Assembly (NCBI RefSeq): GCF_988242995.1
Contig: NZ_OZ547043.1
Length of the DNA stretch: 64,000 bases
Direction: 5' to 3' (one strand)
A model generated the notes under the pieces. The model was not told the DNA's origin. It searched no databases and was given only the letters and a program-made list of their open reading frames with translations. Within the stretch, counting starts at the first letter, position 1; each line of letters opens with the position of its first letter. Made by a program: the position numbers and the translations under genes. Shown in pieces: positions 14,707 through 36,054 of the stretch.

Positions 14707-14871
14707 ATGGAATTTTACGAAAACAAAGCCAAAACGCCGTTTATCAGACTTGTGCAACTCTGGCAGGCGGTGAGGCGTTGGCGGCGGCAAATGCAGACCC
14801 GACGAGTGTTACAGCAGATGAGTGATGAGCGGTTGAGGGATATCGGGTTACGCAGGGAGGATGTGGAGTGA
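14707..14871 (+). CDS. yjiS: DUF1127-family small protein YjiS (54 aa); below the ORF-track size cutoff
   Basis: ATG at 14707 preceded by a strong GAGGAGG Shine-Dalgarno; product MEFYENKAKTPFIRLVQLWQAVRRWRRQMQTRRVLQQMSDERLRDIGLRREDVE; stop TGA 14869-14871. Confidence 0.7.
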   Translation: MEFYENKAKTPFIRLVQLWQAVRRWRRQMQTRRVLQQMSDERLRDIGLRREDVE

Positions 14872-15320
14872 GGGGGATATAGATTTATATATAATAAAAC
14901 GTTTTTATGTTGTTAAATTAAGTTATAAAAATTTTCCCGAGACAATTCATCAATAGGTATGGAGTGTACAGGAATATCTTCTTCACTAACCTCTTTAAAC
15001 TCATACTGATAACGGTCAAAAAACGCACAGTGATTACTTGTGTTTTTTGACTGACTTTACAACTCTCATTATTCGCTATTGTGCAGTTTCTCTAATTGTT
15101 TTATATCCTGGAATGTTAAATGTCAGCTACTGAATACTTTTTGATTGTTTGAGATTTATTTTCATTTGAAATTATAAAATCAGGTGATAAATGAGTTGTG
15201 ATTAATAGATGGTTGATATCATTTTTATCAAAAATTGATTTCTAGTATCGACCTTAAAAAATAGTTGTTGCCGCTTGGTTAATTATACGATATTTTGAAA
15301 AGTTTTCTTTCAAATTAGAA

Positions 15321-18300
15321 ATGTTGTGGGGTTTTGTTTTTGTATCTTTTATCTCTAAGGAGCTTGCTTTGGGTCAATCAGAATACATTTCATGGGTAAA
15401 ATGTACTTCCTGGCTAAGTAACTTTGTGAATCTTAGAGGGTTGAGACAACCGGATGGACGTCCTCTTTATGAATATCATGCAACCAATGCTGAATATAAC
15501 CAATTAACGCAGCTACTCTGTGCTGTTGGTCAATCACAATCTAATATATGTAATAGAGACTTTGCTGCCTGTTTTGTTCTTTTTTGCTCTGAGTGGTACC
15601 GCAGGGATTATGAACGGCAATGCGGATGGACGTGGGACCCTATATATAAAAAAATAGGGATTTCATTCACCGCCACAGAGCTTGGTACTATCGTACCGAA
15701 AGGGATGGAAGATTACTGGCTGCGCCCAATTCGATTTTATGAATCTGAACGACGTAATTTTCTCGGAACATTATTCAGTGAAGGTGGTTTACCTTTCCGG
15801 CTACTCAAAGAATCAGACAGTCGCTTTCTGGCTGTTTTCTCCAGGATCCTTGGACAATATGAGCAAGCAAAGCAGTCAGGTTTTTCTGCCCTTTCGCTGG
15901 CAAGAGCTGTCATAGAAAAATCAGCGCTGCCAACTGTTTTTAGCGAAGATACCTCTGTAGAACTTATCAGTCATATGGCTGATAACCTCAATTCCTTAGT
16001 ACTTACTCACAACCTAACAAATCACAAAGAACCAGTACAACAGCTTGATAAGGTTCACCCTACCTGGCGAAGCGAGTTTCCAATACCGTTAGATGATGAA
16101 ACAGGAACGCATTTTTTGAATGGACTGCTATGCGCAGCCTCTGTAGAGGCTAAGCCTCGACTACAAAAAAATAAGAGTACGCGTTGCCAATTCTATTGGT
16201 CAGAAAAGCATCCAGATGAGCTTAGGGTGATAGTATCTCTTCCTGACGAAGTTTCCTTTCCTGTAACTAGCGAGCCGTCAACTACGCGCTTTGAACTTGC
16301 CATTTATGAAGATGGTGAGGAAGTCTCTGGCCTTGGGCCAGCCTATGCTTCCCTGGAAAACAGACAGGCAACAGTTCGATTACGTAAAAGCGAAGTGAGA
16401 TTTGTCAGGCAAAATCCATCTGCAGGTTTGTCGTTAGTGGCTCGTGCTGGAGGGATGATTGTTGGGAGCATTAAACTTGATGACAGTGAAATTGCCATTG
16501 GTGAGGTGCCGTTAACCTTCATCGTTGATGCAGATCAATGGCTGTTACAGGGACAGGCCTCCTGCAGTGTGCGAAGCAGCGATGTTCTGATTGTGCTCCC
16601 TCGGGACAATAGCACTGTTGCTGGTTTTGATGGCCAATCGAGTGCAGTAAACGTATTAGGACTTAAAGCGCTACCTGTTAAGGGATGTCAGGACGTTACA
16701 GTTACAGCAAATGAAACTTATCGGATTCGCACCGGAAGAGAACAAATCAGCATCGGAAGGTTTGCTCTAAATGGAAAGCGTGCAAGCTGGGTTTGTCATC
16801 CAGATGAGACATTTATTGGTGTACCAAAAGTCATTTCTACACTACCAGATATTCAAAGCATTGATGTAACGCGTTACCTGAGCGGAATTTCAATTGAGCA
16901 ATGTCATATACAAGAGATGCTAGGGGCTCAATATCTTTCTATCCGTAATAGTAATAATGAAACGCTCTTGCGTCGCAAAATCGGTATCTTGCCTGCTGAT
17001 TTCAGTATTGAGATAAAAGGTGGAATGCACGCAAATGAAGGCACTATCGTAATCACCACACAGCATCCTTGTGTAGCAACACTTAAAGATAAAACATTGG
17101 AGGCTACACGTAAGCGTACTGAGGGGCGAACAGAGATACAACTCAAAGCGGAAGGGGTACCTCCGGCATTTATTACATTACAAGTTCTGCCTAATTTGGC
17201 GGCTGATACCATCGACATTGAGTTACCTTTCCCAGCTAAAGGCTGCCTTGCTCTTGATGTAAACGGACGTCCTCTGGATAAAAACATTACGCTGCATGAT
17301 CTGCTGGGTTCCAGAGCATTCCTGTTCTCCAGAAATGGTGAGCCGACAAAATATACATTGCAGTTGCATTTGCGCTCCATTAGTGGATTACAGGCATGGC
17401 ACGAATGGAGTTATACGGCATTGAGCGAGCGTCCTGTTGAATTGAATCTCTATAGTCTACGTGAACACATTGAAAATCTGATTTCACTTGAGGCAGGTAT
17501 TGATCAGGTTGTTGAGATGCGTATTACGGGGGCGGGTGTGGTCATGGCCTGGCAAATTCGTCGCTATAAATACAGCCTGCGCTATGATTATGAAAAAGAA
17601 CTATTACTCAGCCAGTCAGTGAACCATCGTGCTGGACAGATTCCTTCCCCCGTTATCATGCTGTTAAGTGAACCCGAGAGGAAATCCATTCCCTTAGCAT
17701 CAAGAATGAGCGAGGGAGTGCCTGTCGGTGAATATGAGTTGAGCTCAATCGTTAACAAAAACGGACCATGGTTGGTTGTTCCTAAACCGGGTGAAGAGAT
17801 GGCTTTTCGCCCCTGCTTCATTCGTGGCGAATCTTCGTTACCGGTAGAAGAAAGCAACATCCGCTCATTGCAGAAAGCGACCCAGCTTTTTAATCCACAG
17901 GCAGAAGTTAATACCATCACACGGGTTCTCGGACAGATGGCTAACGATCCTGCCCATTCCGGCTGGCAATTTATGCGTAGCCTGTACGATCAATTTGGTT
18001 ATTTACCGCTGGCAACCTTTGAAGTATGGCGTGCACTAGTGCAGCATCCGCAGGCATTGGCGATGTCGCTCTTCAAATTCGAAATGTCAGCAGAGTATCT
18101 GAGTCGTATTGAGAATGAGTTCCCTATTTTATGGGAGTTTTTCCCCATCTTTGAGATCAAAGCTGCATCTGAGCGTTTCAAATTGTTCCTGAGCCAAAAA
18201 GGTGCACCGGAGGAAACCCAGAAATTACTGGTTACCAATATGTTTCAACGGCTGGGGCTCGTGTTCCCGACATATGCCGATGAAATTGAGAAATGGTTAA

Positions 18301-18659
18301 GTAATGGATATCTCCCCCCGTCTATTCCTGAATCTTGTGTCCACGGGTGGTATCAGGAGCTCTTACGTGAGCACAGTGAAGCTCGCTGGCCTGAATACGG
18401 CTGCAAGCGTCTGTATAAATGGATGATGTCACAAAAAAATCCAGTGATTGGTATTAATCCTGACGCAAATCACCGCTATTCCGTGGCCTGGTTACCCGTC
18501 TTCGCCGCAGCGGTGGCAAGCGGAAATGCTTCTTTTGAATCTGTATTTGACCGTAAACCCGGTGCCGTATTTTTCCTGAGGCAAGTCAGGGATTTCGATT
18601 CCCGCTGGTTTAAGGCCATCTTCCAGTTCAGCCTGTTGCGTTATGTTGCTAAAAAATAA
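15321..18659 (+). CDS. yjiT: Large protein of unknown function (1112 aa); intact counterpart of the K-12 yjiT pseudogene; candidate DruH-like partner of the downstream helicase
   Basis: Uninterrupted 3.3-kb ORF with no motif I recognise; AT-rich 5' end; alternative in-frame TTG start at 15369 has a perfect AAGGAG Shine-Dalgarno; stop is 12 nt before the next gene. Confidence 0.8.
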   Translation: MLWGFVFVSFISKELALGQSEYISWVKCTSWLSNFVNLRGLRQPDGRPLYEYHATNAEYNQLTQLLCAVGQSQSNICNRDFAACFVLFCSEWYRRDYERQCGWTWDPIYKKIGISFTATELGTIVPKGMEDYWLRPIRFYESERRNFLGTLFSEGGLPFRLLKESDSRFLAVFSRILGQYEQAKQSGFSALSLARAVIEKSALPTVFSEDTSVELISHMADNLNSLVLTHNLTNHKEPVQQLDKVHPTWRSEFPIPLDDETGTHFLNGLLCAASVEAKPRLQKNKSTRCQFYWSEKHPDELRVIVSLPDEVSFPVTSEPSTTRFELAIYEDGEEVSGLGPAYASLENRQATVRLRKSEVRFVRQNPSAGLSLVARAGGMIVGSIKLDDSEIAIGEVPLTFIVDADQWLLQGQASCSVRSSDVLIVLPRDNSTVAGFDGQSSAVNVLGLKALPVKGCQDVTVTANETYRIRTGREQISIGRFALNGKRASWVCHPDETFIGVPKVISTLPDIQSIDVTRYLSGISIEQCHIQEMLGAQYLSIRNSNNETLLRRKIGILPADFSIEIKGGMHANEGTIVITTQHPCVATLKDKTLEATRKRTEGRTEIQLKAEGVPPAFITLQVLPNLAADTIDIELPFPAKGCLALDVNGRPLDKNITLHDLLGSRAFLFSRNGEPTKYTLQLHLRSISGLQAWHEWSYTALSERPVELNLYSLREHIENLISLEAGIDQVVEMRITGAGVVMAWQIRRYKYSLRYDYEKELLLSQSVNHRAGQIPSPVIMLLSEPERKSIPLASRMSEGVPVGEYELSSIVNKNGPWLVVPKPGEEMAFRPCFIRGESSLPVEESNIRSLQKATQLFNPQAEVNTITRVLGQMANDPAHSGWQFMRSLYDQFGYLPLATFEVWRALVQHPQALAMSLFKFEMSAEYLSRIENEFPILWEFFPIFEIKAASERFKLFLSQKGAPEETQKLLVTNMFQRLGLVFPTYADEIEKWLSNGYLPPSIPESCVHGWYQELLREHSEARWPEYGCKRLYKWMMSQKNPVIGINPDANHRYSVAWLPVFAAAVASGNASFESVFDRKPGAVFFLRQVRDFDSRWFKAIFQFSLLRYVAKK

Positions 18660-18671
18660 AAAGGAATAAGG

Positions 18672-21600
18672 ATGACTACACGCTATTTTTCGTCACTTAT
18701 TGAACAATCGTTGTCTCGTTCAACTGAAGCAACGCTCAGTATCATGGGCGTTACAAACCCGCAGTTGCGTGAACATCTCGCGCAGCAAATGGGGGCTGAT
18801 TGTGGGAAACCGGGCTCATTCCTTGCTTCTCCGGTATTCCAGCAAATGTTTGGCTGGAAGGAGTCAAACCACACGATGCGCAGTCTGACGGAAGGCAACG
18901 CATTGTTGAGCAAAGCAGTGGTTGATTCACTGGATGATCAGAGTAATGGCCGGTACCGATTTGGTGCTGACTGGAAGCCTTTTACACACCAGTTAGCCAG
19001 TTGGAAAGCTTTGCTGGAAAAGAAACATTCAGTGGTGGTAACCAGTGGTACGGGTTCAGGTAAAACGGAATGTTTTATGGTACCGGTGCTGGAAGATCTT
19101 TACCGGGAACTGCATGAAAATGGCAACAATCCGTTGGTCGGTGTCCGAGCCCTTTTTCTCTATCCATTGAACGCCTTGATTAATTCACAGCGCGAGCGTC
19201 TGGATGCCTGGACGCGTGGTTTTGGTACTGGGATCCGCTACTGCTTGTATAACGGAAATACAGAAGAGCTCCACGCAAAAATGAAAACAGTGCAGGATAA
19301 TAGACCAAATGAAGTCTTATCCCGTGAAAAGATGCGTCTGGAGCCAGCCCCGATTCTGGTGACCAACGGCACGATGCTGGAATATATGATGGTTCGCCAG
19401 GTCGACGCCCCGATTATCCAGCAATCCAAAGCACAAAAATCACTACGCTGGATTGTACTGGATGAAGCGCATACCTATGTCGGGTCGCAGGCCGCTGAAC
19501 TGGCACTCCAGCTGCGTCGTGTGATGACAGCGTTTGGCGTGACGCCAGATGATGTGCGCTTTGTAGCGACCTCTGCGACCATTGCCTGCAGCGACGCCGA
19601 AAAGCAGCTGAAAAAATTTCTCTCTGAATTATCCGGTATCCCGCAGGAGCGCATCGATGTTCTGGACGGAAGTCGGGTGATTCCTGAACTGGAACCATCC
19701 AAAAACGTTTCTGTTCCGTTAGACGAAATAGAGCAAATACCTGATCTGGATCTAAAAGATAAAAATGATAATAAAATTAAAGGGATAAGCCCTGAGCGCT
19801 TTTATGCGCTTACGCACTCCCCCGAAGCGCGTTACATACGTGAAATGTTGGTTAGCCAACCCAATCCAATGAAACTGGATGAGATGACGCAGCGGTTAAA
19901 TGCGCTGACAAAACAGCATTACAGCCAGCAGGAAGTACTGCGTTGGATCGATGTCTGTTCAGGGACTCAACCTAATGCAAAGGATCCCGCATTTCTTAAA
20001 GTCAGGGCGCATATCTTCCAGCGTAATACCCAAGGAATATGGGCTTGTGTTGATAAAGATTGCAGATTAAAGCACGGTACACCGCTCGAAAAAGGCTGGC
20101 CCTTTGGCTATGTGTATGTGAACCAGCGACAAAATTGTGACTGTGGAAGCCCTGTATACGAAGTTGCATTCTGTAATGATTGTAATGAGCCTCATCTTCT
20201 GGCGCAGGACAAAAAGGGCAAACTTGTCCAATGGGAAAATAAAGGTGGCGATGAGTTCTCCTTGCAGGATGAAGTACCTGTTGAACATGACACTACAGAG
20301 GAAAAAGTCGAAAAAGAGAACGGTTTCCTGCCTCCGTTGATTATTGCCGCAGGAGAGACCAGCGAGACAGGCTATACCCTACAACGCCTCGACCACCAGA
20401 CGCGCCGTATTGGCGTTATTAACAATGACAGCATTCCGCTGATTATTAATGATGTTGAACAGGTTTGTAGCGCCAGTGGCTGTGGCTACAGAGGCATGAG
20501 TGGGAAACAGCCCTTCCGGCGTGCACTATTAGGTGGGCCATTTTACGTTACTAATATCGTGCCCACCGTTCTTGAGTATTGTCAGGACTTTACCAGTGAT
20601 GAAGGCAAAGAGGGCGTCGGACCAGATTCGTTGCCAGGGCGAGGACGTCGACTCATTACCTTTACGGACAGTCGACAAGGTACAGCTCGAATGGCGGTGC
20701 GTATGCAGCAAGAAGCAGAACGCAGTCTCTTACGCGGAAGCGTAGTCGAAATTCTGAGCTGGCATCAACGGACGCAAACGTCCACGGCGCCGAATGCCAA
20801 TGCCGATCTGGAAAAATTAGCGGCCAGGGCAAAGCAAGCCCGTGAGCAGGCAGAAGAATATCGAAGCTGGGGAATGCCAGACCAGGCGAAATTGTCACAA
20901 GCACAGGCTGAACAGCTTGAACAGGCTTATCAGGCTGCAACCGGTGGAAAAGCAGCAACTACCCTGGTATCCCGCACCTGGACAGAAATGGTTAACGAGC
21001 TTAAAGATAAAGCCGATATCCGTGGCCCGGTACTGAAATATAACCACTATTTGCAGCCTGAAGTGTTTAATAAAAACGGCGGGCCACTAAAGCTTTCGGA
21101 AATGTTGTTGTTCCGGGAATTCATGCGTCGCCCTAAACGGACTAACAGCCTGGAAACACAGGGGCTGGTTCAGGTTGGTTACCAGGGGCTGGAGAAAATA
21201 CATAAGAGCCCCTTGCACTGGCAGGAAAAAGGATTAACGCTGGATGACTGGCGCGATTTTCTCAAGGTTACGTTGGATCTTTATGTTCGCGAAAGCAACT
21301 TCACACAGCTGGATGATGAGCTGAAAAACTGGATTGGTAGCCGTTTTTCATCAAAATTCGTCCGTAACCCGGAATCAAAAGATCCTGAAGATAATCAGAA
21401 CAGACGCTGGCCTCAAATTCGTAATGGCAACGTATCCCATCGTTTAGCGAAGTTACTGATGCTGGGGGCTGGATTCAAAACCGTCAATACGGCGACTATT
21501 GATATTATCAATACATGGCTGAAAGAAGCATGGGCCCAACTTACCGGACCACTTGCAGTACTGAAACCCGATGGCAACCGTTTTTATTTACCGAAAGAGC

Positions 21601-24600
21601 ATATGACTTTTTCTTTAATCACGGATGCCTGGATTTGCCCGGTAACCAATAAAATCCTGGATACGGCTTTTAAAGGCTTAACCCCTTATCTGCCCACCCA
21701 TATTTCGTTCGAGCATCTTACCCAGGCGCAATATGACACTTTTGTCGCGCAGAAAGTCACCATGCCGGAAATCTGGAAGCTGGATCGTTCACAGGAAGAC
21801 TACGCAGAGGGTCTGGCAAAAGCACGAGACTGGGTCAACAATGATCCGCTGATCGCACAATTGCGGTCGGAAAACGTCTGGACAGACATCAACGATCGTG
21901 TAGTGGAAGGCGGTTTCTACTATCGCACTGCCGAGCACTCTGCCCAGCAGTCGTCAGAACGCCTGCAAAGCTATGAAAAGATGTTCAAGAACGGGCAACT
22001 AAATGTTCTCAACTGTTCCACCACCATGGAAATGGGGGTTGATATTGGGGGCATTACTGCGGTGGTAATGAACAACGTTCCGCCACATCCGGCCAACTAT
22101 TTACAGCGCGCCGGGCGAGCCGGGCGTAGTAAAGAATCACGCGCGATCTCTTATACCCTATGCAAAGGTAACCCACACGACCAGCAGGTTTTTGCCAACC
22201 CACTCTGGCCATTTGAAACCATGATCCCGGCACCCATGGTCGCGATGAACTCCGCCCGACTGGTGCAACGTCACGTCAATGCATTATTACTGTCTGACTT
22301 TTTATGTAACGTTATTGGCGAAACCGATAAAGAGAAAACCAGCCTCGATAGCCTCTGGTTTTTCGGTGAAGATGACGGGCAGTCAAAATGCGAACGCTTT
22401 AAAGTCTGGCTGGAACGCCCGGTTCTTGATATCGACATGGCGCTGGAACGGCTGGTGAAAGGTACGGCGTTGCATGGCGCAAGAGCCGAACATCTGCGGG
22501 ATAAAACAATCAATGCGATCACCTTCCTGCAACAGCGGTGGCTCTCCGTTTATCGCGATCTCGTGACCCAGGAGCGTGAGTCGCAGCCGCAAACGCCTTA
22601 TCGTAAGCGCATAGAGCTGGAGAAGAAACGGCACTGTGGCGAGTATCTGCTGCGCGATCTGGCTGCCAGAACCTTCCTGCCGGGATACGGTTTCCCGACA
22701 GATGTAGTGACGTTTGATAACTTCACGATGGAAGATTATATCCGCGAAAAATCGCAGAAAAGTCGTGATAAAAAGGACCGTGAAGATAACGTCTCCCGTT
22801 ATAAAGGATTACCTTCCCGTAACCTCGGTGTTGCCATTCGTGAATATGCACCGGGAGCAGAGATCATTCTTGATGGTCGTGTCTTCCGCTCTGCCGGTGT
22901 CTCACTGCACTGGCACAACATTAATGCTGATACCAATGAAGCCCAGCGTCTGGATTGCGCCTGGCGCTGTCACAAATGCGGGACCATTGGCTATGAAGAG
23001 GGGATGAGCAGTTCCGGGATGCTCTTTTGCTCCAACAGCGCCTGCGGCGAAAAAATAACCATGGATAATCGCCGTCAGGTGTTGCAGCCTGCCGGGTTTG
23101 TCACCGATGCACACGCTCCGGTAACGAACAATATTGAAACCATGAAATTCGTCCCGGTTGTCCCCGCGTGGGTCTTTGTTAAAGCAGAGCCTGTACCGTT
23201 GCCTAACCCGCTAATGGGTTATATGGCTTCTGGGGCTGATGGGCATGTTTTCCAGCAAAGTTTGGGGGAAGGTGGACACGGTTATGCATTGTGTCTGAGC
23301 TGTGGCCGTGCGGAGTCGATGCTGAATGAAAATGATGCACCGAAAAGTATGGAAGCTCACTATCCACCGCGTCCGGGTAAAGCGGACCGCGACAGCCAGA
23401 ATCATCGTCTGATTTGCCCCGGTTCGACGGCACTCATGAAGAACGTCACCCTGGGCGCACTGGCGCGCACCGATGTCTTTGAAATGGTTCTGCGCAAACC
23501 GCAAAACGGCGAGTATCTGCCAGATAACACAGAAGAGGGGCGGATTGTCGCTATGACTCTGGCGGTTGCTCTGCGTCAGGCGCTGGCAGGCGTTCTGGGT
23601 ATCTCCGCCGCAGAACTCGGCTATTCTGTACGTCCGGTCAGACTGGAGGATGGGCAATCGGTATTAGCCGTTCAGCTTTATGATGTGATCAGCGGTGGTG
23701 CTGGTTTTGCCTCCAGCGCACCGGTACATATTGAAGCTATATTGCAGGGAATGGTGAAACAGTTAGGCTGCCGCCATTGTGATACTGCATGCAGTGAATG
23801 TCTGCTTGATTCCCAGACTCGCCACGATCACGATTTGCTGGATCGCAAAGTGGCGCTGGCTTGGCTTGGCGATGACTTCACGTATTACATCGGTTTACCG
23901 GATGAAGAGACATTCTCGCTGCCGGATGCCCGCTACTGCCCTGGCGCTATTGGCGATACGATTCGCCGGGCGATTAACGAAGGCGCTGAAAAGCTCACCC
24001 TGTGGATGACTGGCGCGCCCAATGAGTGGGATTTATACGGCCGTCAGTTCCGCGCGGCTATTCAGAGCTATCGGCTAAAAGACAACGTCGAGGTCGATCT
24101 TGTTATTCCTGCGGGAGTGGATGACCCAGACCTGTTGCATGAACTATCGCAATTTACTGCGCTGGGTGTGCGGTTGTGCCATGTTGAGCAGGAGCTGCAA
24201 TTACCGATTGTTGCCCAGGTCACCTTTGCCGATCGCGTGATGACGCTGGCCTCTCGCAGTCAGCAGGCAACGATTCCGGGGCCGGAGTGGCACCTGAATG
24301 ACGAACTGGTGGTGCGTAGTCTCGGTTATCAAACGGTAGAACTGAACGAGTTTATTCTGCCCGCTAAAGCCGCCAACGCTGTCGAGCGGGTCAAAGACAT
24401 TCAGATCCACAAACAGTTGAATGGACCACTTTCGCAGTTTGGGCAACGCTTCTGGGACGTGCTGTTTAACGACCATGAAGAAGCGCAGTCACTGATGAAA
24501 AACACGCGAATTACCGGCGTTCACTATACCGATCGCTATCTGCAAAACCCGGTTGCGCTGGCGTTGTTGGGATCAATTCTGAAACCGCTAAAAACAAAGC

Positions 24601-25023: not shown

Positions 25024-25050
25024 CCGCTCCCGACGTCGTGTCGGGAGCGG
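25024..25050. terminator. GC-rich stem-loop between convergent yjiV (druE-like) and mcrC; possible bidirectional terminator or RNA-stability element
   Basis: 11-bp perfect stem CCGCTCCCGAC / GTCGGGAGCGG with a 5-nt loop; no clear U-tract on either strand. Confidence 0.45.
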
Positions 25051-25072
25051 TATTGTCTATAAAACTTACCGC

Positions 25073-26119: not shown

Positions 26120-27498
26120 TATGAGTCACCTAATAATTTGTCGGCCCATATCTGTTGTTTATAGGGGTCATCAAAGAAATATTCTTCGAGTAAAGGGGCG
26201 ATATCCGTCATCACAATTTCCTTAAGCCATTGCGTATCAGGAGAGGTGCCATCTTCCAACCCGGAGCAGAAGTAACTATGCCCAATGCGGAATCCTTTCC
26301 CAAGGATAGTGGCCTCTTTGCTGATTTCCTGGTTTAACTCATTCATTTTTTGGCATAAAGACTCAACAAATGAAGGTTCTGCTTTTTTATTCAGTAAAAA
26401 ATTACGGAACTGTGGTGTATCAAAACCAGGCTCAATATCTATGAAAGAAAATCGTCTGCGCAGGGCATAATCAACAACGGCCAGAGAGCGATCGGCAGTA
26501 TTCATTAAACCGATAATATAAACATTCTCCGGGACATAGAATCGTTCTTCATCGTTTTCGGAATAGGTTAAGGGAACAGACCAGTTTTCACCTCGTTTAT
26601 CATGTTCCATTAACATCATCACTTCGCCAAATACTTTACTGAGATTGGCACGATTGATTTCATCTATAATAAAAACATACTTTTTCTCTGGCTGCTCTTT
26701 AGCTTGCTGACAAAAATTGTAAAATATGCCGTCTTTACGTCGGAAGCCGACGCCATTCGGACGATAGCCCTGTATAAAATCCTCATAGCTATAAGATTGA
26801 TGGAACTGAACCATATTGACGCGTTGCGGAGCCTTTTCTCCTGTCAGCAGGTAAGCCAGACGGCGTGCAACAAAGGTTTTTCCAACGCCGGGCGGCCCCT
26901 GGAGGATAATATTTTTTTTGATGGTTAATCGTTTGAGTATCGTCTCTATCGTGGTTTCAGGGATAAACAAATCATTTAACGCATCTTCCAGACAGTATGA
27001 TTCAGTTTTTGACATAGGTGGAATAACACTCTTGCCAGAATTAAATATTAATTTATAGTCGTTGATTATGTTGTCCAGCATGGAGGCAAACCGGGTATAA
27101 TCAAGACCCTGTGAGACTTTTTGGGAACAGGCGTAATAGGACTGTCCGTATTTTTTAGGATAAACACCTGAAGTTGTCTGGAAATACTCTGCGATTGTTT
27201 TAGGTATGTCTGAAGAGAACTGCCATTGGGCATGTGGTTTATTCGTGTCGCTTATACCATAAGCCAAAACCAACTCATCAAAATCTTTATAATAGAGAAT
27301 AACGGGATATATACCGTTAGAAACTTCCTGACCTTCTCCCAGAAATGCAAACCAGGGAATAGATGTAAAATTGCCATAACCGAAACTCACTTTTACTCGC
27401 AGGTTACGGTAAGACGTTGGATAATCTTTGGTGGATTGTGAACTTTTTTGCTGTGCTTGCTCAATAAATTTTTCAATCCAGGCTTGAATTGATTCCAT
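26119..27498 (-). CDS. mcrB: McrB, GTP-binding AAA+ DNA-binding subunit of McrBC
   Basis: Start at ATG 27498 (MESIQAWIEKF..., AGGAAGG Shine-Dalgarno) gives 459 aa; the ORF-track Met six codons upstream is the alternative; Walker A GPPGVGKT; in-frame internal Met162 (codon 27013-27015) matches the known McrB-s short form. Confidence 0.9.
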   Translation of the reverse strand: MESIQAWIEKFIEQAQQKSSQSTKDYPTSYRNLRVKVSFGYGNFTSIPWFAFLGEGQEVSNGIYPVILYYKDFDELVLAYGISDTNKPHAQWQFSSDIPKTIAEYFQTTSGVYPKKYGQSYYACSQKVSQGLDYTRFASMLDNIINDYKLIFNSGKSVIPPMSKTESYCLEDALNDLFIPETTIETILKRLTIKKNIILQGPPGVGKTFVARRLAYLLTGEKAPQRVNMVQFHQSYSYEDFIQGYRPNGVGFRRKDGIFYNFCQQAKEQPEKKYVFIIDEINRANLSKVFGEVMMLMEHDKRGENWSVPLTYSENDEERFYVPENVYIIGLMNTADRSLAVVDYALRRRFSFIDIEPGFDTPQFRNFLLNKKAEPSFVESLCQKMNELNQEISKEATILGKGFRIGHSYFCSGLEDGTSPDTQWLKEIVMTDIAPLLEEYFFDDPYKQQIWADKLLGDS

Positions 27499-27659
27499 AA
27501 GATGTGCCTTCCTCATTGCTAAGCCTCTATTATCGCTTTCGCAACGTACTGAAACAATAGATTTTTACTGCAAAAGGTGGTGGGTAAATATTTACTGAGG
27601 GGGAAAGTTTCTATTGAGTCAGTGGAAGGCTCCCGGTGGTTAACCGGGAGTAAACGCTG

Positions 27660-28001
27660 TTACGCGACTTTCTGTTTACCGGCAATCACTCCAATAAACG
27701 CCTGCACCTGCTTTTGTTTACGTGCCGACAGCTTGCACACCTGGCGCAGCGACTGCATCAGTTCGCTCTCTTCGACGGCGAGTGGTTGGGCGGTGAGGAC
27801 AATACAGCCTTCCATCACTTTGACATCTACCGCCGTGCCGGTGGTAAAACCGGCGGCTTCCAGCCACTGACCTTTCAGGGTGATGGCGGGAATACGGCTG
27901 TAATCCGGGTAGCGACTCGCATAACTCACGGTTAATTGACGGTTATTTGCCGGGGAGACTTCTGCTTCGAACGGTTGTGCAATAGAATGCATGTCAGTCA
28001 T
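27660..28001 (-). CDS. symE: SymE, SOS-induced toxin-like protein (AbrB-fold; YjiW)
   Basis: 113-aa ORF ([52 protein letters not shown]...); LexA-box-like site about 78 nt upstream. Confidence 0.85.
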
Positions 28002-28071
28002 GATTACTATTCCTTAGAAATAGGGATTGTGATTAGCGGTGCGGGTGTGTTGGCGCACATCCGCACCGCGC
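27995..28071 (+). ncRNA. symR: SymR (RyjC) cis-antisense sRNA opposite the symE 5' end; coordinates approximate
   Basis: Candidate -10 TAGAAT at 27983-27988 on the + strand inside the symE 5' coding region; transcript would cover the symE start codon and Shine-Dalgarno and end at a GC-rich hairpin (about 28035-28071); ends not verifiable here. Confidence 0.4.
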
Positions 28072-28078
28072 TAAATAC

Positions 28079-28094
28079 CTGGATATATCATCAG
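28079..28094 (-). promoter_or_regulatory. LexA (SOS) box-like operator upstream of symE
   Basis: CTG-N10-CAG palindromic 16-mer (bottom strand CTGATGATATATCCAG) about 78 nt upstream of the symE start; consistent with the known SOS control of symE. Confidence 0.6.
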
Positions 28095-28185
28095 TAAATA
28101 CCGGGAAAGTCCAGCTAAAAATAGAATAAAATGGGCAATTTCCGGAATGATTTAAATATATTTATGTGAGTTATGATTGGCGAGA

Positions 28186-28228: not shown

Positions 28229-29653
28229 TCAGAACTTTTTACGCGAGGCTTTTTTACCCCCGCTGGCTGCGCGCTCAGCTTTGATTTTCTCCAGCAACGC
28301 AGCGGCGCTGTTTTCTCCGCTGATTAAATCCGGGTTTTCGGCCCGCCACTGGGCGGTGAGTTCACCACGGAACGCTTTTGCCAGGATGGATTGCGTCAGG
28401 TTGTTGACGCGGGCTAAGGCGTTGTTGACCTGTTTTTCTATGGAGTCGGCGTAGGCGAAGAGTTGCTCGACGCGGCGAACGATTTCGTGTTGTTCTTCTA
28501 TAGACGGTAAAGGGACAAATGCATTTTTAAGATCTTTTAAATTTAATGTCTTTCTGGCGACCTCCTTAGATGACTGAACTAGCCATGTTTGCATAACTGG
28601 TGAACTTAACCATATATGGAGAAACATAGGAACAATAATCTTATATTCAGGAGATATTCTGGCAACGGCACGAGCGATATTAACATTTATATCTTCTCTA
28701 ACAATACCTATTCTACCTATAGCCCCAACAATTGTTACAAGAATGTCATTCTTTCGTACTTTGGAACGCTTATATTGTAAATCTATTTCCTTTGAAATTT
28801 TACGAAGATGATTTAAATCTACTTCACCATCGTTAATATCACAAACACGAATTAATTCTATACCGTCTTTTATATCATCTCCAGGTTGCACCACACCATA
28901 ACATAATGGTCTTTGTGTATTGATAATGTTATTCAAAATTGTTTCACTCCAGTCTTCTGGAATAAGGATTTTGTAGTTATCTAATTCAACTTTTTTTGTT
29001 ATAAAATCTTTATCTTCTTTGGTCAACCTACCAGTTACTGCCGCAGCCAACACCGCCTGACGAAAACGTTTCAGGATTTGTGGGATTTGCTCAAGGCGTG
29101 CTTTGGTGCTGTCTACCTGCGCCAGCAGCGTATCGAGTTTTTCAGCGATGATTTTTTGCTCGGCAAGTGGTGGCAACGGAAGTAGGGTATCTTGAAGTGT
29201 CCTGGAAGAAAGATGCTTTACAGTAACCGAGGACGTATTTGCATTGATTGCGGATAAATATCCTGGTAAGGCGTGATAGAAAAACCTTTTATTGTATTTG
29301 TCTTCCTGAACTTCAATTTTACATACTCGTTGATTTAACAGAGCTGGTTCTGAGCACCATATAGTTGCATTAAAATCACCATCCATTCCCACGATTAAGT
29401 CTTCGGGATATACCCAATATCCCTCAGGAATTTGACCCGAGTAATAAGTCGATGTATTACCTTTTAGAACATCACGAATTCTAATTAATGGTACACCATC
29501 TTTACGATTATTAAATTCTGACGACTTAAAAGCAAAACCGTTTGTGATGTTTGCTACGGAATCCATTGAAATACGTAACCAGCTATCATGGATTGAAAGT
29601 AACCCATTGATATTTTGCTCAATTAATTCTTTTGATGTTGAGTTGAAACTCAT
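28229..29653 (-). CDS. hsdS: Type I restriction-modification specificity subunit HsdS (474-aa allele)
   Basis: 474-aa ORF; GC-richer conserved N-terminal, central and C-terminal segments separated by two very AT-rich blocks (target-recognition domains); 4-nt overlap with hsdM. Confidence 0.9.
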   Translation of the reverse strand: MSFNSTSKELIEQNINGLLSIHDSWLRISMDSVANITNGFAFKSSEFNNRKDGVPLIRIRDVLKGNTSTYYSGQIPEGYWVYPEDLIVGMDGDFNATIWCSEPALLNQRVCKIEVQEDKYNKRFFYHALPGYLSAINANTSSVTVKHLSSRTLQDTLLPLPPLAEQKIIAEKLDTLLAQVDSTKARLEQIPQILKRFRQAVLAAAVTGRLTKEDKDFITKKVELDNYKILIPEDWSETILNNIINTQRPLCYGVVQPGDDIKDGIELIRVCDINDGEVDLNHLRKISKEIDLQYKRSKVRKNDILVTIVGAIGRIGIVREDINVNIARAVARISPEYKIIVPMFLHIWLSSPVMQTWLVQSSKEVARKTLNLKDLKNAFVPLPSIEEQHEIVRRVEQLFAYADSIEKQVNNALARVNNLTQSILAKAFRGELTAQWRAENPDLISGENSAAALLEKIKAERAASGGKKASRKKF

Positions 29654-31239
29654 TCCTTCACCCCACCAAACGCTTCTTCCAGCAACTGACGCTGTGCATC
29701 CGCCTCATCGCTCGCTCCCAGTTCACGTATCAGCGCATCCAGTTCGCCCAGCGCCTGTACCAGCTCGCCCATCGCTTCTGCCGCTAATACATCCGGCTCC
29801 GGCAGGTTGTCGGCATCAATGCTATCTTTATCTTTCAGCCAGGAGATATCCAGCGAATCGGATTTCGTGGTGCGGATCCACTCGCGGGTGAACTTACGCC
29901 AGCGGCTGGTAGCCAGGTGCTGGTCGGTGTTTTTGTTCTCTTCGCTGTCGGCAACTTCCGTCTCTTCGGCGTTAAAACTCCATTCCCCTTCGCTACGCGG
30001 GCTTAAACCGTGCGGATCTTCGCCATACACGCGCTCAAACGGCTGCAGATGCTCGTCGGTAAACGGCGTGCGTTTGCCGAAGCTCGGCATATTGGTACGC
30101 AGGTCGTACACCCACACATCATCGGTACAGTTCTTATCCTGATGCGGGTTCGCCACCGTCCCTTTGGTAAAGAACAGCACGTTCGCCTTCACGCCCTGCG
30201 CGTAAAAAATACCGGTCGGCAGACGCAGAATAGTGTGCAGATGACACTTATCCATCAGGTCACGACGGATGTCCGTGCCTTTGCCGCCTTCAAACAGCAC
30301 GTTATCCGGCACCACCACCGCCGCACGACCGCCGGGGTGCAGTGTTTCGATAATATGCTGCATAAAGCACAATTGTTTGTTGCTGGTCGGGTGAACAAAG
30401 GTACGGGTAATGTTGGTGCCTGCGGCGCTACCAAACGGCGGGTTAGTGGCGACAATATGCGCCTTCGGCAGGTTTTCACCGTCGCTACCCAGGGTGTTGC
30501 CCAGACGGATTGCGCCACCGTGGTCGAGGTTGCCTTCGATATCGTGCAGCAGGCAGTTCATTAGCGCCAGACGACGGGTGCCGGGTACCAGTTCGAGGCC
30601 GATAAACGCGCGGTGGATCTGGAAATCCTGCGTGTCGCCATCAAGGTCGTCCAGATCGTTAGTCTGCGACTTAACGTAGCGGTCAGCTTCAATCAAAAAG
30701 CCCGCTGTACCTGCTGCCGGGTCCTGCACCACTTCACGCGGCTGCGGTTTCAGCAGATGAATAATGGTTTTAATCAGCGGACGTGGGGTGAAGTACTGGC
30801 CCGCGCCAGACTTGGTTTCGTTGGCGTTTTTCTGCAACAGCCCTTCGTACATATCGCCGAAGTCATCGCGTGACTTACCGTGCGCGCCGTTGTACCAGTC
30901 CAGTGAATCCATATTGCTGACCAGTTCGGTCAACTGTTTCGGCTGGGTAATGGTGGTGTTGACGTTCTGGAACACCGCCTGCACCAGCTTTTGATTGTCG
31001 GCGCCCAGATGCACCAGCAGGTTACGGTAGAACTGCAACTGCTCCTGGCCGATGCGGGATTTCAGGTCATCCCAGCGGTAGCCTTCCGGCAGGTATTCCG
31101 CTTCCTGTCCGGTTTCTTTACACATTTTCAAAAACAGCAGCGAGGCGAGTTCATTGACGTAGTTTTGATAGGAAACGCCGCCATCGCGCAGGTTGTCGCA
31201 CAGTTTCCACAGCTTCGCGACCAGATCGTTATTGTTCAT
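29650..31239 (-). CDS. hsdM: Type I R-M N6-adenine DNA methyltransferase HsdM
   Basis: 529-aa ORF; catalytic NPPF motif (VATNPPFGSAAG); AdoMet-binding region. Confidence 0.95.
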   Translation of the reverse strand: MNNNDLVAKLWKLCDNLRDGGVSYQNYVNELASLLFLKMCKETGQEAEYLPEGYRWDDLKSRIGQEQLQFYRNLLVHLGADNQKLVQAVFQNVNTTITQPKQLTELVSNMDSLDWYNGAHGKSRDDFGDMYEGLLQKNANETKSGAGQYFTPRPLIKTIIHLLKPQPREVVQDPAAGTAGFLIEADRYVKSQTNDLDDLDGDTQDFQIHRAFIGLELVPGTRRLALMNCLLHDIEGNLDHGGAIRLGNTLGSDGENLPKAHIVATNPPFGSAAGTNITRTFVHPTSNKQLCFMQHIIETLHPGGRAAVVVPDNVLFEGGKGTDIRRDLMDKCHLHTILRLPTGIFYAQGVKANVLFFTKGTVANPHQDKNCTDDVWVYDLRTNMPSFGKRTPFTDEHLQPFERVYGEDPHGLSPRSEGEWSFNAEETEVADSEENKNTDQHLATSRWRKFTREWIRTTKSDSLDISWLKDKDSIDADNLPEPDVLAAEAMGELVQALGELDALIRELGASDEADAQRQLLEEAFGGVKE

Positions 31240-31439
31240 TGTAAGTTCCGTAAATTAAGCAGCGGCCCGCATGTTCGGGGCCGCAGAAGAAGAAATTGCC
31301 GAGGGTAATATACACAAAATCATTCAGATTGCATCAAGGCGGCAAGTGAGCGAATCCCCGGGAGCGTACAGAAGTACTTGACCGGGGTAAACGAGCGCAG
31401 CCAACGCAGAGGCAGCCTGAAGGATGAAGTGTATACGTG

Positions 31440-34400
31440 TCAGGCCAGCTCGTCCCAAATGTAATCGCTGAATTTATCGAGCAGGTTGTCGAGATTATCG
31501 TCAAAGGTTCTTTGCAGCATCGCCTTCCCGCCGCGACGGTGGAAGTTGCCGGTTTTGAAGACATCGTCGTCGAGCACCACTTTCTCTTTCAGCGCCTGCG
31601 CTAAACGATCGAGCCAGCTTAATTGCTCGCTGCTCCAGTCATTTTCGCCCTTAATGCGCGTCAGCGCGTGATCGACACGTTCCTCAAACGGTTTCAGCGC
31701 ATCGCCCACCGCAGCGCGGCGAATATGTCCAATCAGCCGGGCGGCGATATCTTCATTGCGCGTCTCTTGCCATGCTTTGCGCAGGGAAGATTCCTCAAAG
31801 TGCTGGCGGTCAAACCACTCCTGTAGCTCGACCAGCCCTTTACGGGTGAGATCGCGCGGGCGATTAATCACCGCCTGCAATGCCGGCTGTGCATTCGGGG
31901 AACGTTGCACCAGCGAGTCAAAGGCTTCGAGGAAATCCTGCGGCGTGTCGTAATCACCGTACAGCGATTTTACGCTCACCACTTCATCGTCGATATCGAG
32001 GAAGATCGGCGCATCATTCAGGTTGTTGATGTCGGTTTTCAGCTTTTCCAGACGGGCGATAAAGCCAGGTAGTTTGTTAAAGACTTCGGCGCTCCAGTGC
32101 GGCCCTTTTTCCCGCAGGCGCGAGGCGAAGCCGTTAAAGTTAACCCCCGCCGCGTCCTGGCATAGCTCATCCAGACGACGCACCTGTTTGTCTATCGTTT
32201 CGCTGCGGTCACGGTTAAACGTGGCCAGGCCGATGATGCGCTGGAGCTTCGCCACCAGTTGTTCATGGCTGTGCTCGGCAAAACTGCGGCCATCCGCTTC
32301 GGTGATTTTATAGGTTTCTGAATCGGTAATTTCGTTGACCAGCGTTTGCAGTTCCACCTTCGGACGCACCACCACCGGACGCATGGTGTCGACGCTCTCC
32401 AGCGTGCTGTAGATATCGACACAGTCGAAAATCTTAAAGCTGGTTTTATTCACCTCCGGGCATAAGCGCGTGGCGCGCCCTTTCATCTGCTCGTACAGAA
32501 TACGGCTGCGTACCTTGCGCAGGAACACGATATTACAGATCGACGGAATATCGACGCCGGTCGTCAGCAGGTCGACGGTGACCACGATATTGGGCAGCCG
32601 CTCTTTATTGAAGCGGGTGATCATGGTCTGCACTTTTCGCGCGTCTTTATCGGCATCACCGGTGATCTTGATGATCGCGTCGTGCTCCAGTTGTGGATAC
32701 TTTTTCTTGAACGCGGTACGCAGCTCTTCCACCACCATATCGGCATGGGCATTGGTGACGCAGAAGACCAGCGTTTTTTGTGACCCGGTCGGGTCAAGGT
32801 AGTTGGTGAGTTCGTTACAGACGGCGCGGTTAAACGCCGGGATCACCAGGCCACGGTTAAAGTCGGCGACCTCAAAATCCTGATCGTCTTCCAGGGTGTC
32901 GTTGATCACTTCCCCCTGCGGGCTGATGCGCTCAACCTGCTCGCCTTTGGAGAGATAAACCCCTTCCTGGGCGTTGCGGGTGGTGATCTGAATCGGCGGA
33001 TCCTGGTCGATCAGAAAACCGTCGATAACCGCGGTACGGTAGGTGTAACGGTAAACCGGCTCGCCGAAAATCTGCACCGTATGCAGAGCCGGGGTGGCGG
33101 TGAGAGCGATTTTTACCGCATCGAAGTGATCGAGAATACGACGGTAGGCAGAGACGTAATCCAGCTGACTGCGGAACTGTAGTTCGCCTTCGGTCTGCTC
33201 TTTATCGAGAATGTAGCCGCGATGCGCTTCATCGACGACGATACAGTCGTAACGGGCTACCGGCATCGGTTCATCCGATTGCAGGGTGCGTTTCACCAGC
33301 GACTGTACGGTGGCAACGTGAATTTTGGTGCTGTCTTCAGGGAATTTATCCGTCAGCCCTTTAATGTCGAAAATGCTGTTAAAGGTGTCGCCGTTAATAC
33401 GCGTATCTTCAAACGCGCCCAGCGCCTGTTCGCCAAGAGAACGGCGGTCGACAAGGAAGAGAATGCGTTTAAAACGCTGGGACTGGATCAGGCGGAACAT
33501 CATGGCAATTGCCGTACGGGTTTTACCGGTACCGGTTGCCATCGCCAGCAGGATCTCTTGTTGCCCCTTGACGATTGCCTTTTCAACCGCGCGGACGGCA
33601 TCTTCCTGATAATAACGCAGGCCCAGCTCACTCATGCCAGGGTTATCGGCAAACCACTGATTCTGTTTTTGCGGTTCGCTGCCGAGCATTTCCAGCAGCT
33701 CTTCCGGGCGGTGCCACTCGGGTAAGGCTTTCGACATATTGCGGGTATCACGCACGTCGCGATACCAGATGCCGCTTTTAATCTTCATCGCTGCGCGGTA
33801 TTCGCGCCCGTTGGTTGAGTAGCAGAAGGGGATTTTAAACCGTTGTTGGCCGCTGGTGTCCTGCCAGCTGGTTTCATACTCTGGCACCGCTTCATGCACT
33901 TCATCTGGTGAATAGTGCTCAAGCAAGGTTTCCCGCAGGAAGCCATTATCGAAACATTTACTGTAGCGATACGACTCATTGAGCTTGCCGGGAACGTCGA
34001 TATTTTTACGTTTCGCTTCTACCACCGCGATGGGTTTGAGACCGACAAACAGCACATAATCCGCAAAGCCCTGATTACCCGTTTCATCTTTCCCGGTCGG
34101 CCATTCGGCAATGGCTTTATTGACGCCGGGTTCCGGGCGCGCGCCTTTGGAGAAGCGCAGGGTTTTGCTATCGGCCTGCCAGCCTGCTTTACGCAGTTGC
34201 GCGTCAATCAGGAAGCGGCTCTCTTCTTCGCTAAGATTGAGTGTACGCTTGATGGCCTGATCGGTAATTTCTTTGTGGTAAGCCTTACGTTCCTGTTCGG
34301 TCTGCTTGGCCAGTTCCGCGTTCTTCTCGGCGAGCTGTGCTTCCAGTGCAGCAAGGCGAGCCTGGGTTTGCGCTTCGGTTTCCTGCTGCTTGCCTTCCAG

Positions 34401-34952
34401 AATGGCGATATAGCCGTTCAGGGCAACCAGCTTCTGCTGTTGTGCTTCGACTTCTGCCTGACTCTGCGCTTTTTCTCGCACCTGCTGTTCAAGCTGTTGT
34501 TTTAGCGTCAGCACTTCCTGGTGATAGAGGTTTTCACCACGTTCCGGCAACACAAACACCGGCACCGGGAAGTCATAATCTTTAGTGACCAGACGGTAGT
34601 ACCAGACAGCCAGGCGAAACCCGAGTCGCAGGCACATCTGGGCATCGTCGAGATCGTTATGATATTCGTGCACCGCCTGGTTACCAATGCGGCGTAATTT
34701 GTGGAATACAGAGAGAATGTTGTCATCAACGAAGGCGATTTTGCCGAGTTCGCGCAGGAGATCGTGTTGATTCTCACAAGGGGGGATGTTGAGTAACAGA
34801 CCAAGATGTTTCGCTGTGGCTTCGCCAAACATACGCATTTTAATCAGCGTCGTGTTGGGATCATCCGGGTAGTTATTTTCCGCCGCACAGGCGATGGCAT
34901 AGGTAAAGTCGTTGACGCCCTTCAGGAATTCAAAATTGGATTTATTCATCAT
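31440..34952 (-). CDS. hsdR: Type I R-M restriction endonuclease/translocase HsdR
   Basis: 1170-aa ORF; SF2 motifs (Walker A MATGTGKT, DEAH VVDEAHR); N-terminal nuclease region. Confidence 0.95.
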   Translation of the reverse strand: MMNKSNFEFLKGVNDFTYAIACAAENNYPDDPNTTLIKMRMFGEATAKHLGLLLNIPPCENQHDLLRELGKIAFVDDNILSVFHKLRRIGNQAVHEYHNDLDDAQMCLRLGFRLAVWYYRLVTKDYDFPVPVFVLPERGENLYHQEVLTLKQQLEQQVREKAQSQAEVEAQQQKLVALNGYIAILEGKQQETEAQTQARLAALEAQLAEKNAELAKQTEQERKAYHKEITDQAIKRTLNLSEEESRFLIDAQLRKAGWQADSKTLRFSKGARPEPGVNKAIAEWPTGKDETGNQGFADYVLFVGLKPIAVVEAKRKNIDVPGKLNESYRYSKCFDNGFLRETLLEHYSPDEVHEAVPEYETSWQDTSGQQRFKIPFCYSTNGREYRAAMKIKSGIWYRDVRDTRNMSKALPEWHRPEELLEMLGSEPQKQNQWFADNPGMSELGLRYYQEDAVRAVEKAIVKGQQEILLAMATGTGKTRTAIAMMFRLIQSQRFKRILFLVDRRSLGEQALGAFEDTRINGDTFNSIFDIKGLTDKFPEDSTKIHVATVQSLVKRTLQSDEPMPVARYDCIVVDEAHRGYILDKEQTEGELQFRSQLDYVSAYRRILDHFDAVKIALTATPALHTVQIFGEPVYRYTYRTAVIDGFLIDQDPPIQITTRNAQEGVYLSKGEQVERISPQGEVINDTLEDDQDFEVADFNRGLVIPAFNRAVCNELTNYLDPTGSQKTLVFCVTNAHADMVVEELRTAFKKKYPQLEHDAIIKITGDADKDARKVQTMITRFNKERLPNIVVTVDLLTTGVDIPSICNIVFLRKVRSRILYEQMKGRATRLCPEVNKTSFKIFDCVDIYSTLESVDTMRPVVVRPKVELQTLVNEITDSETYKITEADGRSFAEHSHEQLVAKLQRIIGLATFNRDRSETIDKQVRRLDELCQDAAGVNFNGFASRLREKGPHWSAEVFNKLPGFIARLEKLKTDINNLNDAPIFLDIDDEVVSVKSLYGDYDTPQDFLEAFDSLVQRSPNAQPALQAVINRPRDLTRKGLVELQEWFDRQHFEESSLRKAWQETRNEDIAARLIGHIRRAAVGDALKPFEERVDHALTRIKGENDWSSEQLSWLDRLAQALKEKVVLDDDVFKTGNFHRRGGKAMLQRTFDDNLDNLLDKFSDYIWDELA

Positions 34953-35139
34953 TGTTATTAATCCATTGCTGTGTGGGCCTGTCCAAATATTTAAGGCCCA
35001 TAACGCCTTATCTTAGCTTTCTGTACCTTTCCGGGCAATGACCACGGTCACAGCAACTGACTCATTTCTAACGTGTTCGTCTATTTTGGTAGTGTTATAG
35101 TAGCCGAAAAACATCTACCTGATTCTGCAAGGATGTACT

Positions 35140-36054
35140 ATGACGGTTCCTACCTATGACAAATTTATTGAACCTGTTCTGCGTTATCTGGCGACAAAAC
35201 CGGAAGGTGCAGCCGCGCGTGATGTTCATGAGGCTGCCGCGGATGCATTAGGACTGGATGACAGCCAGCGAGCGAAAGTCATTACCAGCGGACAACTTGT
35301 TTATAAAAATCGTGCAGGCTGGGCGCATGACCGTTTAAAACGTGCCGGGTTGTCGCAAAGTTTGTCGCGTGGCAAATGGTGCCTGACTCCTGCGGGTTTT
35401 GACTGGGTTGCGTCTCATCCCCAGCCAATGACGGAGCAGGAGACGAACCATCTGGCCTTCGATTTTGTGAATGTCAAACTTAAGTCACGGCCGGATGCCG
35501 TCGATTTAGATCCGAAAGCCGACTCTCCCGATCATGAAGAACTTGCAAAGAGCAGCCCGGACGATCGGTTAGATCAGGCGCTAAAAGAGCTTCGTGATGC
35601 GGTGGCTGATGAGGTTCTGGAAAACTTATTGCAGGTTTCTCCTTCGCGCTTTGAAGTCATTGTTCTGGATGTTTTGCATCGCCTGGGGTATGGCGGCCAC
35701 CGTGATGATTTGCAGCGTGTTGGCGGTACTGGAGATGGTGGCATCGATGGTGTGATATCGCTTGATAAACTTGGCCTGGAGAAAGTTTATGTTCAGGCAA
35801 AACGTTGGCAGAACACTGTAGGCAGGCCAGAATTACAGGCATTTTACGGCGCACTGGCTGGGCAAAAGGCGAAACGTGGGGTGTTTATTACCACTTCTGG
35901 ATTTACGTCTCAGGCGCGTGACTTTGCTCAATCCGTCGAGGGTATGGTGTTGGTTGATGGGGAACGCCTGGTGCACTTAATGATCGAAAACGAAGTAGGG
36001 GTTTCTTCACGTTTGTTGAAGGTGCCGAAACTGGATATGGACTATTTTGAGTGA
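35140..36054 (+). CDS. mrr: Mrr, type IV methylated-DNA restriction endonuclease
   Basis: 304-aa ORF; N-terminal winged-helix and C-terminal Mrr catalytic region; synteny next to hsdR. Confidence 0.9.
   Translation: MTVPTYDKFIEPVLRYLATKPEGAAARDVHEAAADALGLDDSQRAKVITSGQLVYKNRAGWAHDRLKRAGLSQSLSRGKWCLTPAGFDWVASHPQPMTEQETNHLAFDFVNVKLKSRPDAVDLDPKADSPDHEELAKSSPDDRLDQALKELRDAVADEVLENLLQVSPSRFEVIVLDVLHRLGYGGHRDDLQRVGGTGDGGIDGVISLDKLGLEKVYVQAKRWQNTVGRPELQAFYGALAGQKAKRGVFITTSGFTSQARDFAQSVEGMVLVDGERLVHLMIENEVGVSSRLLKVPKLDMDYFE

Follow-up and report, generated by a model that had tools for sequence, protein, structure and literature searches.

An undeleted E. coli B-type immigration control region with a predicted Druantia III-A system among exchangeable defense modules

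The immigration control region (ICR) of Escherichia coli was the first defense island to be described. A review whose anchors and cassette families match those reported below names it hotspot 36, lists type IA, IB and ID systems, Mrr, McrBC, GmrSD, symE and rpn as its contents, and sets it, as a region with no mobilizing activity, against the integrase-anchored hotspot 37; Druantia is unmentioned there (PMC12707154). YjiT is encoded within the ICR, and a link between YjiT and Druantia has been noted elsewhere (PMC13192584). Here we describe the ICR in a stretch of 64,000 nucleotides from contig NZ_OZ547043.1 (RefSeq assembly GCF_988242995.1), hereafter the window, which is 100% identical to the chromosome of the bovine isolate E. 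coli CFS3313 (NZ_CP026939.2). Positions 14877-36099 of the window are the ICR, lying between yjiR/yjiS and yjiA. Profile searches for each module recovered five, all intact and in the order that the initial annotation of this DNA had given: Druantia, McrBC, SymE/SymR, HsdSMR and Mrr. Its list of modules was therefore correct, since the profile matches confirm each of them. We put at roughly 90% the probability that the ICR is a fixed slot in which self-contained defense cassettes are swapped, that this strain carries an undeleted 'E. coli B-type' set, and that the modules act independently. The arrangement and every module in it are already known from the literature or from annotation models. 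Our own observations concern gene identities, intactness, cassette boundaries, composition and frequencies; for mechanisms we draw on homology and the literature.

The edges of the slot are sharp. Comparison by blastn with other layouts places its start 5 nt past the stop codon of yjiS, at 14877, and its right edge at 36099, adjoining the yjiA stop codon. The left anchor, yjiS (14707-14871, + strand), encodes a small DUF1127 protein (Pfam DUF1127) and lies beside yjiR (13118-14530, - strand) in the left flank; the right anchor is yjiA (36100-37056, - strand). In three strains with other ICR contents blastn put the left breakpoint at 14871/14876, and the right breakpoint fell at 36100. The same breakpoints were found where the slot holds penicillin G acylase, a set of GmrSD and type IB hsd genes, or type I remnants with BrnTA. 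These alternative contents (type IB/EcoAI-family hsd with GmrSD; BrnTA; penicillin G acylase) share the anchors and breakpoints of the window and keep symE beside unrelated type I families, but their cargo, whether defensive or not, is wholly different and includes no Druantia, McrBC or Mrr. Annotation and a repeat search revealed no integrase, transposase, tRNA or flanking direct repeats within the block or at its edges. The locus thus combines hypervariable, defense-rich content, conserved anchors to its left (yjiN...yjiS) and right (yjiA) and the lack of a resident integrase, the features by which the ICR is defined (PMC12707154). The remaining long open reading frames (ORFs) of the ICR stretch are all nested in named genes, in other frames.

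E. coli K-12 has the same slot and anchors, filled in the same gene order and orientation (yjiT-yjiV-mcrCB-symE-hsdSMR-mrr). Its mcrBC, symE/symR, hsdMR and mrr are 94-99% identical to those of the window, but its hsdS is the EcoKI allele, in which both recognition domains differ, and its rpnD is a pseudogene with an internal stop. The K-12 pseudogenes yjiT and 'yjiV' (DEAD/DEAH helicase) correspond to the intact druHE genes of the window minus 16878-19894 and 22045-24228 (3.0 and 2.2 kb). From K-12 the flanks diverge by 0.05-0.2% and the interior of the slot by 2-6%, and this step at the anchors is consistent with recombination breakpoints there. Gene by gene, identity to K-12 is 99.8-99.95% for mdtM-yjiN and yjiR, 94.5% for yjiS and 94-98% for the ICR genes (94.1% for hsdM); on the far side it is 95.9% for yjiA and 98.8% for btsT. 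Cassettes would most likely be swapped through homologous recombination, with the conserved flanks and conserved stretches inside the slot as its sites.

The match to E. coli B is much closer, with 99.9-100% DNA identity from the middle of druE through mrr and with McrC, McrB, SymE, HsdS, HsdM, HsdR and Mrr protein accessions identical to those of the window. In E. coli B an IS1 element replaces 12727-21662 (8.9 kb), so that the 3' end of rpnD, yjiR, yjiS, druH and the initial 3 kb of druE are gone; BL21 has an additional IS1 that splits hsdS, the EcoBI allele. Because B is near-identical over the shared part and IS1 replaces the remainder, we regard the window as an undeleted B-type ICR.

To gauge how the modules are distributed we surveyed 5,426 complete E. 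coli genomes, in which module frequencies range from 1.9% to 53%; these are not population estimates, because the collection is biased by hundreds of laboratory derivatives of K-12 and B. Nearly every genome (5,423) had some match to 14000-36500, for which the flanking anchors suffice, but at least 80% of that stretch was covered in 229. The symE region had some match in 2,872 genomes, and mrr was present in 951; type IA hsdMR reached a coverage of at least 80% in 927, and mcrBC was present in 596. ICR-type druHE was matched in 674 genomes and was near full length in 231. The EcoBI-type hsdS allele was present in 101, while the conserved parts of hsdS matched in 922. All but a few matches were chromosomal: uninspected plasmid matches made up 6 of the 8,217 places found with the whole stretch and 3 of the 3,712 found with hsdMR, and searches with druHE, mcrBC or mrr gave none on plasmids. 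The initial annotation had found the composition of the region consistent with modular exchange, and had named a gene content invariant among strains as evidence to the contrary. Together with six alternative slot layouts, the survey bears out modular exchange: module boundaries and presence or absence could be defined across genomes, and the content is variable, the opposite of invariance.

The helicase cassette, previously put forward as a 'candidate Druantia-like' system, can be upgraded on the strength of full-length PADLOC matches to DruH3 and DruE3: it is a complete predicted Druantia type III-A system, for which phage resistance would be expected. Its first gene, druH/yjiT (15369-18659, + strand), encodes a Druantia III accessory protein of 1096 aa that matches PADLOC DruH3 (PDLC00049) over its full length with 1830 bits and NCBIfam YjiT_fam with 1277 bits. 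The start codon is the TTG at 15369, which has an AAGGAG ribosome-binding site ahead of it; the longest ORF begins at 15321. Against the DruH of PDB entry 9tud the match (79 bits) covers residues 14-266, that is, the N-terminus only. The second gene, druE (18672-25016, + strand), encodes an SF2/YprA-like helicase of 2114 aa that scores 2692 bits against PADLOC DruE3, aligning with positions 1-2053 of the 2055 in the profile, and 1018 bits against the DruE of PDB entry 9tu7. Pfam reports DEAD, Helicase_C and MZB (DUF1998) domains in it, and a putative PLD-like region lies at its C-terminus. The motifs GSGKT128, DEAH264, SAT301 and RAGRAGR1146 (helicase motifs I, II, III and VI) and Cys1700-1710 of the MZB domain are intact; helicase and zinc-binding motifs were found essential by mutagenesis in the ATCC 8739 system (10.64898/2026.05.13.724758). 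C-terminal PLD-like domains on DruE are a trait of III-A, as opposed to the shorter III-B. The length of the protein fits III-A, and a 71-bit alignment pairs its last 325 aa with the PLD region of the 9tu7 DruE. As a candidate PLD catalytic motif we considered a single HxK at 2039-2041; it is uninformative, because the solved homolog has HGR at the aligned site. The gene druH is the sole accessory gene, directly upstream of druE and co-directional with it across a 12-nt gap. Between yjiS and mcrC we found no further non-nested ORF of at least 80 aa, and no DruA-D or DruM/F/G.

Upstream of druH lies a leader of 497 bp with 28.6% GC (14872-15368), which belongs to the Druantia module, being missing by blastn in the layouts where Druantia is missing. 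It contains no match to the sigma-70 consensus, and the only small ORFs in it, of 20-36 aa, are unsupported. The leader could be a target of H-NS silencing.

Druantia III has been shown to confer phage resistance, with both genes needed for it, in the lineage of ATCC 8739 and EDL933 and in systems from P. aeruginosa and M. smegmatis. In these studies DruE is a 3'-to-5' helicase that loads on single-stranded or forked DNA, and a role as sensor and/or nuclease is ascribed to DruH; the phage is cleared directly, non-abortively and independently of host methylation, and clearance is blocked by hydroxymethyl- or glucosyl-cytosine in the phage (bioRxiv 10.64898/2026.05.13.724758; PMC13192584; 10.64898/2026.05.13.724313). 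The system of ATCC 8739, EDL933 and Sakai (ECs_5259-5260) resembles that of the ICR in also having two co-directional genes, druH and then druE. Moreover, both types of DruE are ~2,100 aa long, with conserved helicase motifs and the same order of RecA1, RecA2, MZB/DUF1998 and a C-terminal region that is putatively PLD-like in the ICR type. However, the characterized system lies on SpLE6/SPIDER, a phage-like element, where Zorya II and ARMADA II flank it (Sakai locus 326-30155), whereas the ICR system stands beside restriction genes of types I and IV. Judged by their sequences, the Druantia III systems of E. coli fall into two lineages that differ greatly, only one of them studied; in the literature that we searched we found no experiment on the other, the YjiT lineage of the ICR.

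The mcrBC cassette occupies 2.6 kb on the - strand (25050-27663) and is present or absent as a unit; it encodes a type IV, GTP-dependent system for modified cytosine. Both genes meet NCBIfam equivalog models well above the cut-offs: mcrC (25073-26119, - strand) scores 450.3 against a cut-off of 338, and mcrB (26119-27498, - strand) 1103.5 against 637. Pfam reports MrcB_N and AAA_5 in McrB, as well as McrBC, and the two genes overlap by 1 nt. This is the make-up of a McrBC system, in which McrB joins a DNA-binding N-terminal domain to an AAA+ GTPase and its neighbor McrC is the nuclease subunit. In strain 120899, which lacks mcrBC, the absence is exact and druE abuts symE; blastn against this strain sets the left breakpoint of the cassette at 25049/25050. 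The GC content of mcrBC is 39.7%.

The type I genes follow on the - strand. The specificity gene hsdS (28229-29653) encodes a protein of 474 aa (PADLOC Specificity_I, 679 bits) and consists of the recognition domains TRD2 (28501-29021, 31.9% GC) and TRD1 (29174-29647, 36.3% GC) around a conserved center (29022-29173). The exact HsdS protein is named 'EcoBI specificity subunit' in a public source, and at the DNA level hsdS shows 100% identity to E. coli B and to ATCC 11303; the type I system thus carries the EcoBI specificity allele. Next come hsdM (29650-31239; type IA methyltransferase subunit, PADLOC MTase_I, 765 bits) and hsdR (31440-34952; type IA restriction and translocase subunit of 1170 aa, PADLOC REase_I, 2805 bits, full length). 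With hsdM and hsdR 94-97% identical to K-12 and only the conserved segments of hsdS matching, the system belongs to type IA and is allelic with EcoKI. By blastn, the recognition domains of hsdS are swapped between conserved segments across strains. These domains (32-36% GC) and mcrBC had been described as AT-rich relative to the flanks (~52% GC), which our values confirm; the conserved hsdS segments have 53-55% GC. The last module is mrr (35140-36054, + strand), encoding a type IV methylation-dependent endonuclease (PADLOC mREase_IV, 577 bits) in which an Mrr_N winged-helix domain (72.6 bits in Pfam) is fused to an Mrr_cat PD-QxK nuclease domain (135.1 bits). It is 99.3% identical to K-12 mrr.

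Between the mcrBC and hsd genes lies symE (27660-28001, - strand), a type I toxin gene identified by its NCBIfam equivalog (223 against 132) and by Pfam SymE_toxin. Its antitoxin, the cis-antisense RNA SymR (27996-28072, + strand), matches Rfam RF01809 over its full length (1-77) with 93.1 bits against a gathering threshold of 61, and overlaps the symE start codon (28001) and 5' untranslated region. A LexA site has been reported at symE (yjiW), where SymE and SymR were described (PMC1891008). A putative LexA-box-like CTG-N10-CAG palindrome (CTGGATATATCATCAG; 28079-28094), lying 78 nt upstream of the start in the promoter region of symE, fits that report. The locus therefore has the parts of a type I SymE/SymR system: a SymE ORF of the AbrB/MazE fold, a cis-antisense SymR and a candidate SOS operator. 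By blastn the symE core (27664-28132) is retained at ~95% identity even beside type IB systems.

If the modules work as their homologs do, each would be aimed at different features of incoming DNA and would act independently of the rest. EcoBI (HsdR2M2S) would methylate its bipartite site on host DNA and translocate and cut DNA lacking that methylation. McrBC, using GTP, and Mrr would cut foreign patterns of methyl- or hydroxymethyl-cytosine or of methyl-adenine. Druantia III-A would act on phage DNA regardless of host methylation, an activity that hydroxymethyl- and glucosyl-cytosine block in the studied systems. In this system DruH may sense or process infection-specific DNA, and the 3'-to-5' helicase DruE, with or without nuclease activity, may load on single-stranded or forked intermediates of replication and recombination, with the result that the phage is cleared and the cell spared. 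SymE is presumably an SOS-induced, LexA-repressed toxin that is restrained by antisense SymR and accompanies type I systems of several families.

Several points weigh against the reading of a slot filled with independent, working defense cassettes, the bias of the genome collection among them. The module activities rest on homology and the literature. ICR DruE shares 33% identity (729 of 2,186 positions) with Sakai ECs_5260, and ICR DruH shares 24% with ECs_5259, in the N-terminal half only, the C-terminal half being barely alignable. Because identity to the characterized proteins is this low, the mechanism and especially the phage range of the ICR type are what we infer. Studies of Druantia III conflict on the need for the PLD domains or nuclease activity of DruE. 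The activity of SymE is itself disputed, with RNA cleavage (Kawano 2007) set against DNA binding and nucleoid condensation (Thompson 2022, as relayed in PMC11894785), and any role of SymE in defense is hypothetical.

A different proposal is that the modules form a cooperating super-system, in which cleavage by EcoBI, McrBC and Mrr, together with RecBCD, yields ends or single-stranded DNA that feed Druantia III, or in which regulation, for example by SOS, is shared. In its favor, of the 231 genomes in which druHE is near full length, 229 retain 80% or more of the 22.5-kb stretch as well, a coverage that cannot be reached without the type IA hsd genes; such co-occurrence is, however, what mere linkage and common descent would produce. 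Several Druantia III clusters have neighborhoods in which restriction-modification systems of types I and IV are enriched, and Druantia III's synergy with Zorya II runs through shared DNA intermediates and RecBCD (PMC13192584). Yet the cassettes are separable, as shown by strain 120899 without mcrBC, by K-12 and B without functional Druantia, and by symE beside type IB systems, and the ICR genes are divided, over both strands, among five or more transcription units. The adjoining symE, with its LexA-like box, would be under SOS control, but shared repeats, operators or RNAs were not found. Within 11000-38000 the only matches between modules were 18-32 nt long at 66-89% identity, scattered in coding regions and at chance level; the strict LexA pattern CTGT-N8-ACAG had no match in the region; Rfam at E up to 0.5 returned only symR and a sub-threshold match on an ERIC-like repeat (V_AS5, 33.8 bits); and scans for promoter and terminator consensus sequences stayed at the level of shuffled sequence. 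The suggestion that the region holds small or regulatory elements common to the systems thus found no support. On balance we think a super-system improbable, if deserving of more weight than the other alternatives. It is likewise a speculative proposal that YjiT-type Druantia III, a deeply diverged lineage, is kept beside type IA, McrBC and Mrr through cooperation, for example by loading on ends or single-stranded DNA that restriction and RecBCD make from phage DNA. Were this so, the independent loss of Druantia in K-12 and B would partly explain the phage permissiveness of those strains.

It is somewhat less probable still that the Druantia genes, though intact in appearance, are relics that no longer function or are silenced, as in K-12 and B, leaving four working modules. 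The lineage does decay often. Of 672 genomes with ICR-type druHE we examined 60, taken at even spacing; 19 had the genes at full length, two of these with IS insertions, leaving 17 uninterrupted; the rest were 29 of the K-12 type, 4 of the B type and 8 with other decays. The other decays and insertions included IS5/IS2, a truncation by IS3, IS629 with a group II intron, and several larger deletions. Strain 120899 has a truncated druH beside IS621, relocated next to msrA. The 497-bp, 28.6% GC leader, which lacks a consensus promoter, would also suit silencing by H-NS. Nevertheless, both ORFs match the PADLOC profiles over their full length and have no stops, all the helicase and zinc-binding motifs found essential in the ATCC 8739 system are conserved (10.64898/2026.05.13.724758), and many natural isolates that are unrelated to one another keep an identical or near-identical druHE operon.

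That all 21 kb were inserted together as one mobile element (an integrative island or a phage satellite), in the manner of SPIDER/SpLE6, is highly implausible and we reject it: the AT-rich segments of the block suggest foreign origin, and the other E. coli Druantia III lineage rides the phage-like SpLE6 in Sakai (PMC12458937), but the block has no integrase, transposase, tRNA or flanking (terminal) direct repeat in it or at its edges, the same two anchors enclose many unrelated contents, the sub-cassettes vary independently, and the ICR, unlike hotspot 37, is said to have no mobilizing activity (PMC12707154).

By comparison with the window, the yjiT/yjiV pseudogenes of K-12 and, in B and BL21, the truncated helicase gene are plainly remnants of Druantia III, which is relevant when K-12 or B is used as a 'defense-poor' host or when Druantia III mechanisms are extended to YjiT-type systems. 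The locus has reference value as a complete, undeleted B-type ICR and carries little weight as a discovery.

Just upstream of the ICR lies an rpnD-like Rpn family nuclease gene (11954-12874, + strand), which the initial annotation had called intact. Pfam (Transposase_31, 291 bits), NCBIfam (Rpn subfamily, 160.6 against 52.1) and comparison with the RefSeq annotation agree with this. The gene is outside the variable slot as set by the breakpoints.

A GC-rich hairpin (GCTCCCGAC...GTCGGGAGC; 25028-25050) stands just 3' of the druE stop codon, marking the mcrBC cassette's left edge. A second, likewise GC-rich and with a similar stem, lies at 27631-27651, and the pair flanks mcrBC (GCTCCCGAC.../...CTCCCGG). 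Strain 120899 has one such hairpin (17110-17135 of its locus, L003), followed by a T-run, between the convergent druE and symE. The paired hairpins could be either the trace of an insertion mechanism or just terminators.

An ERIC/IRU-like imperfect palindrome of 127 bp (31309-31435) lies between the hsdR stop codon and the hsdM promoter region. It matches the ERIC core pattern and has an RNA fold z-score of -4.5, and a copy at ~84% identity occurs in the puuR-puuC spacer of >2,000 genomes. The palindrome is a generic enterobacterial repeat, a bystander and not a defense element. A second ERIC core lies at 39533-39567 (- strand), between btsT and the hpa genes.

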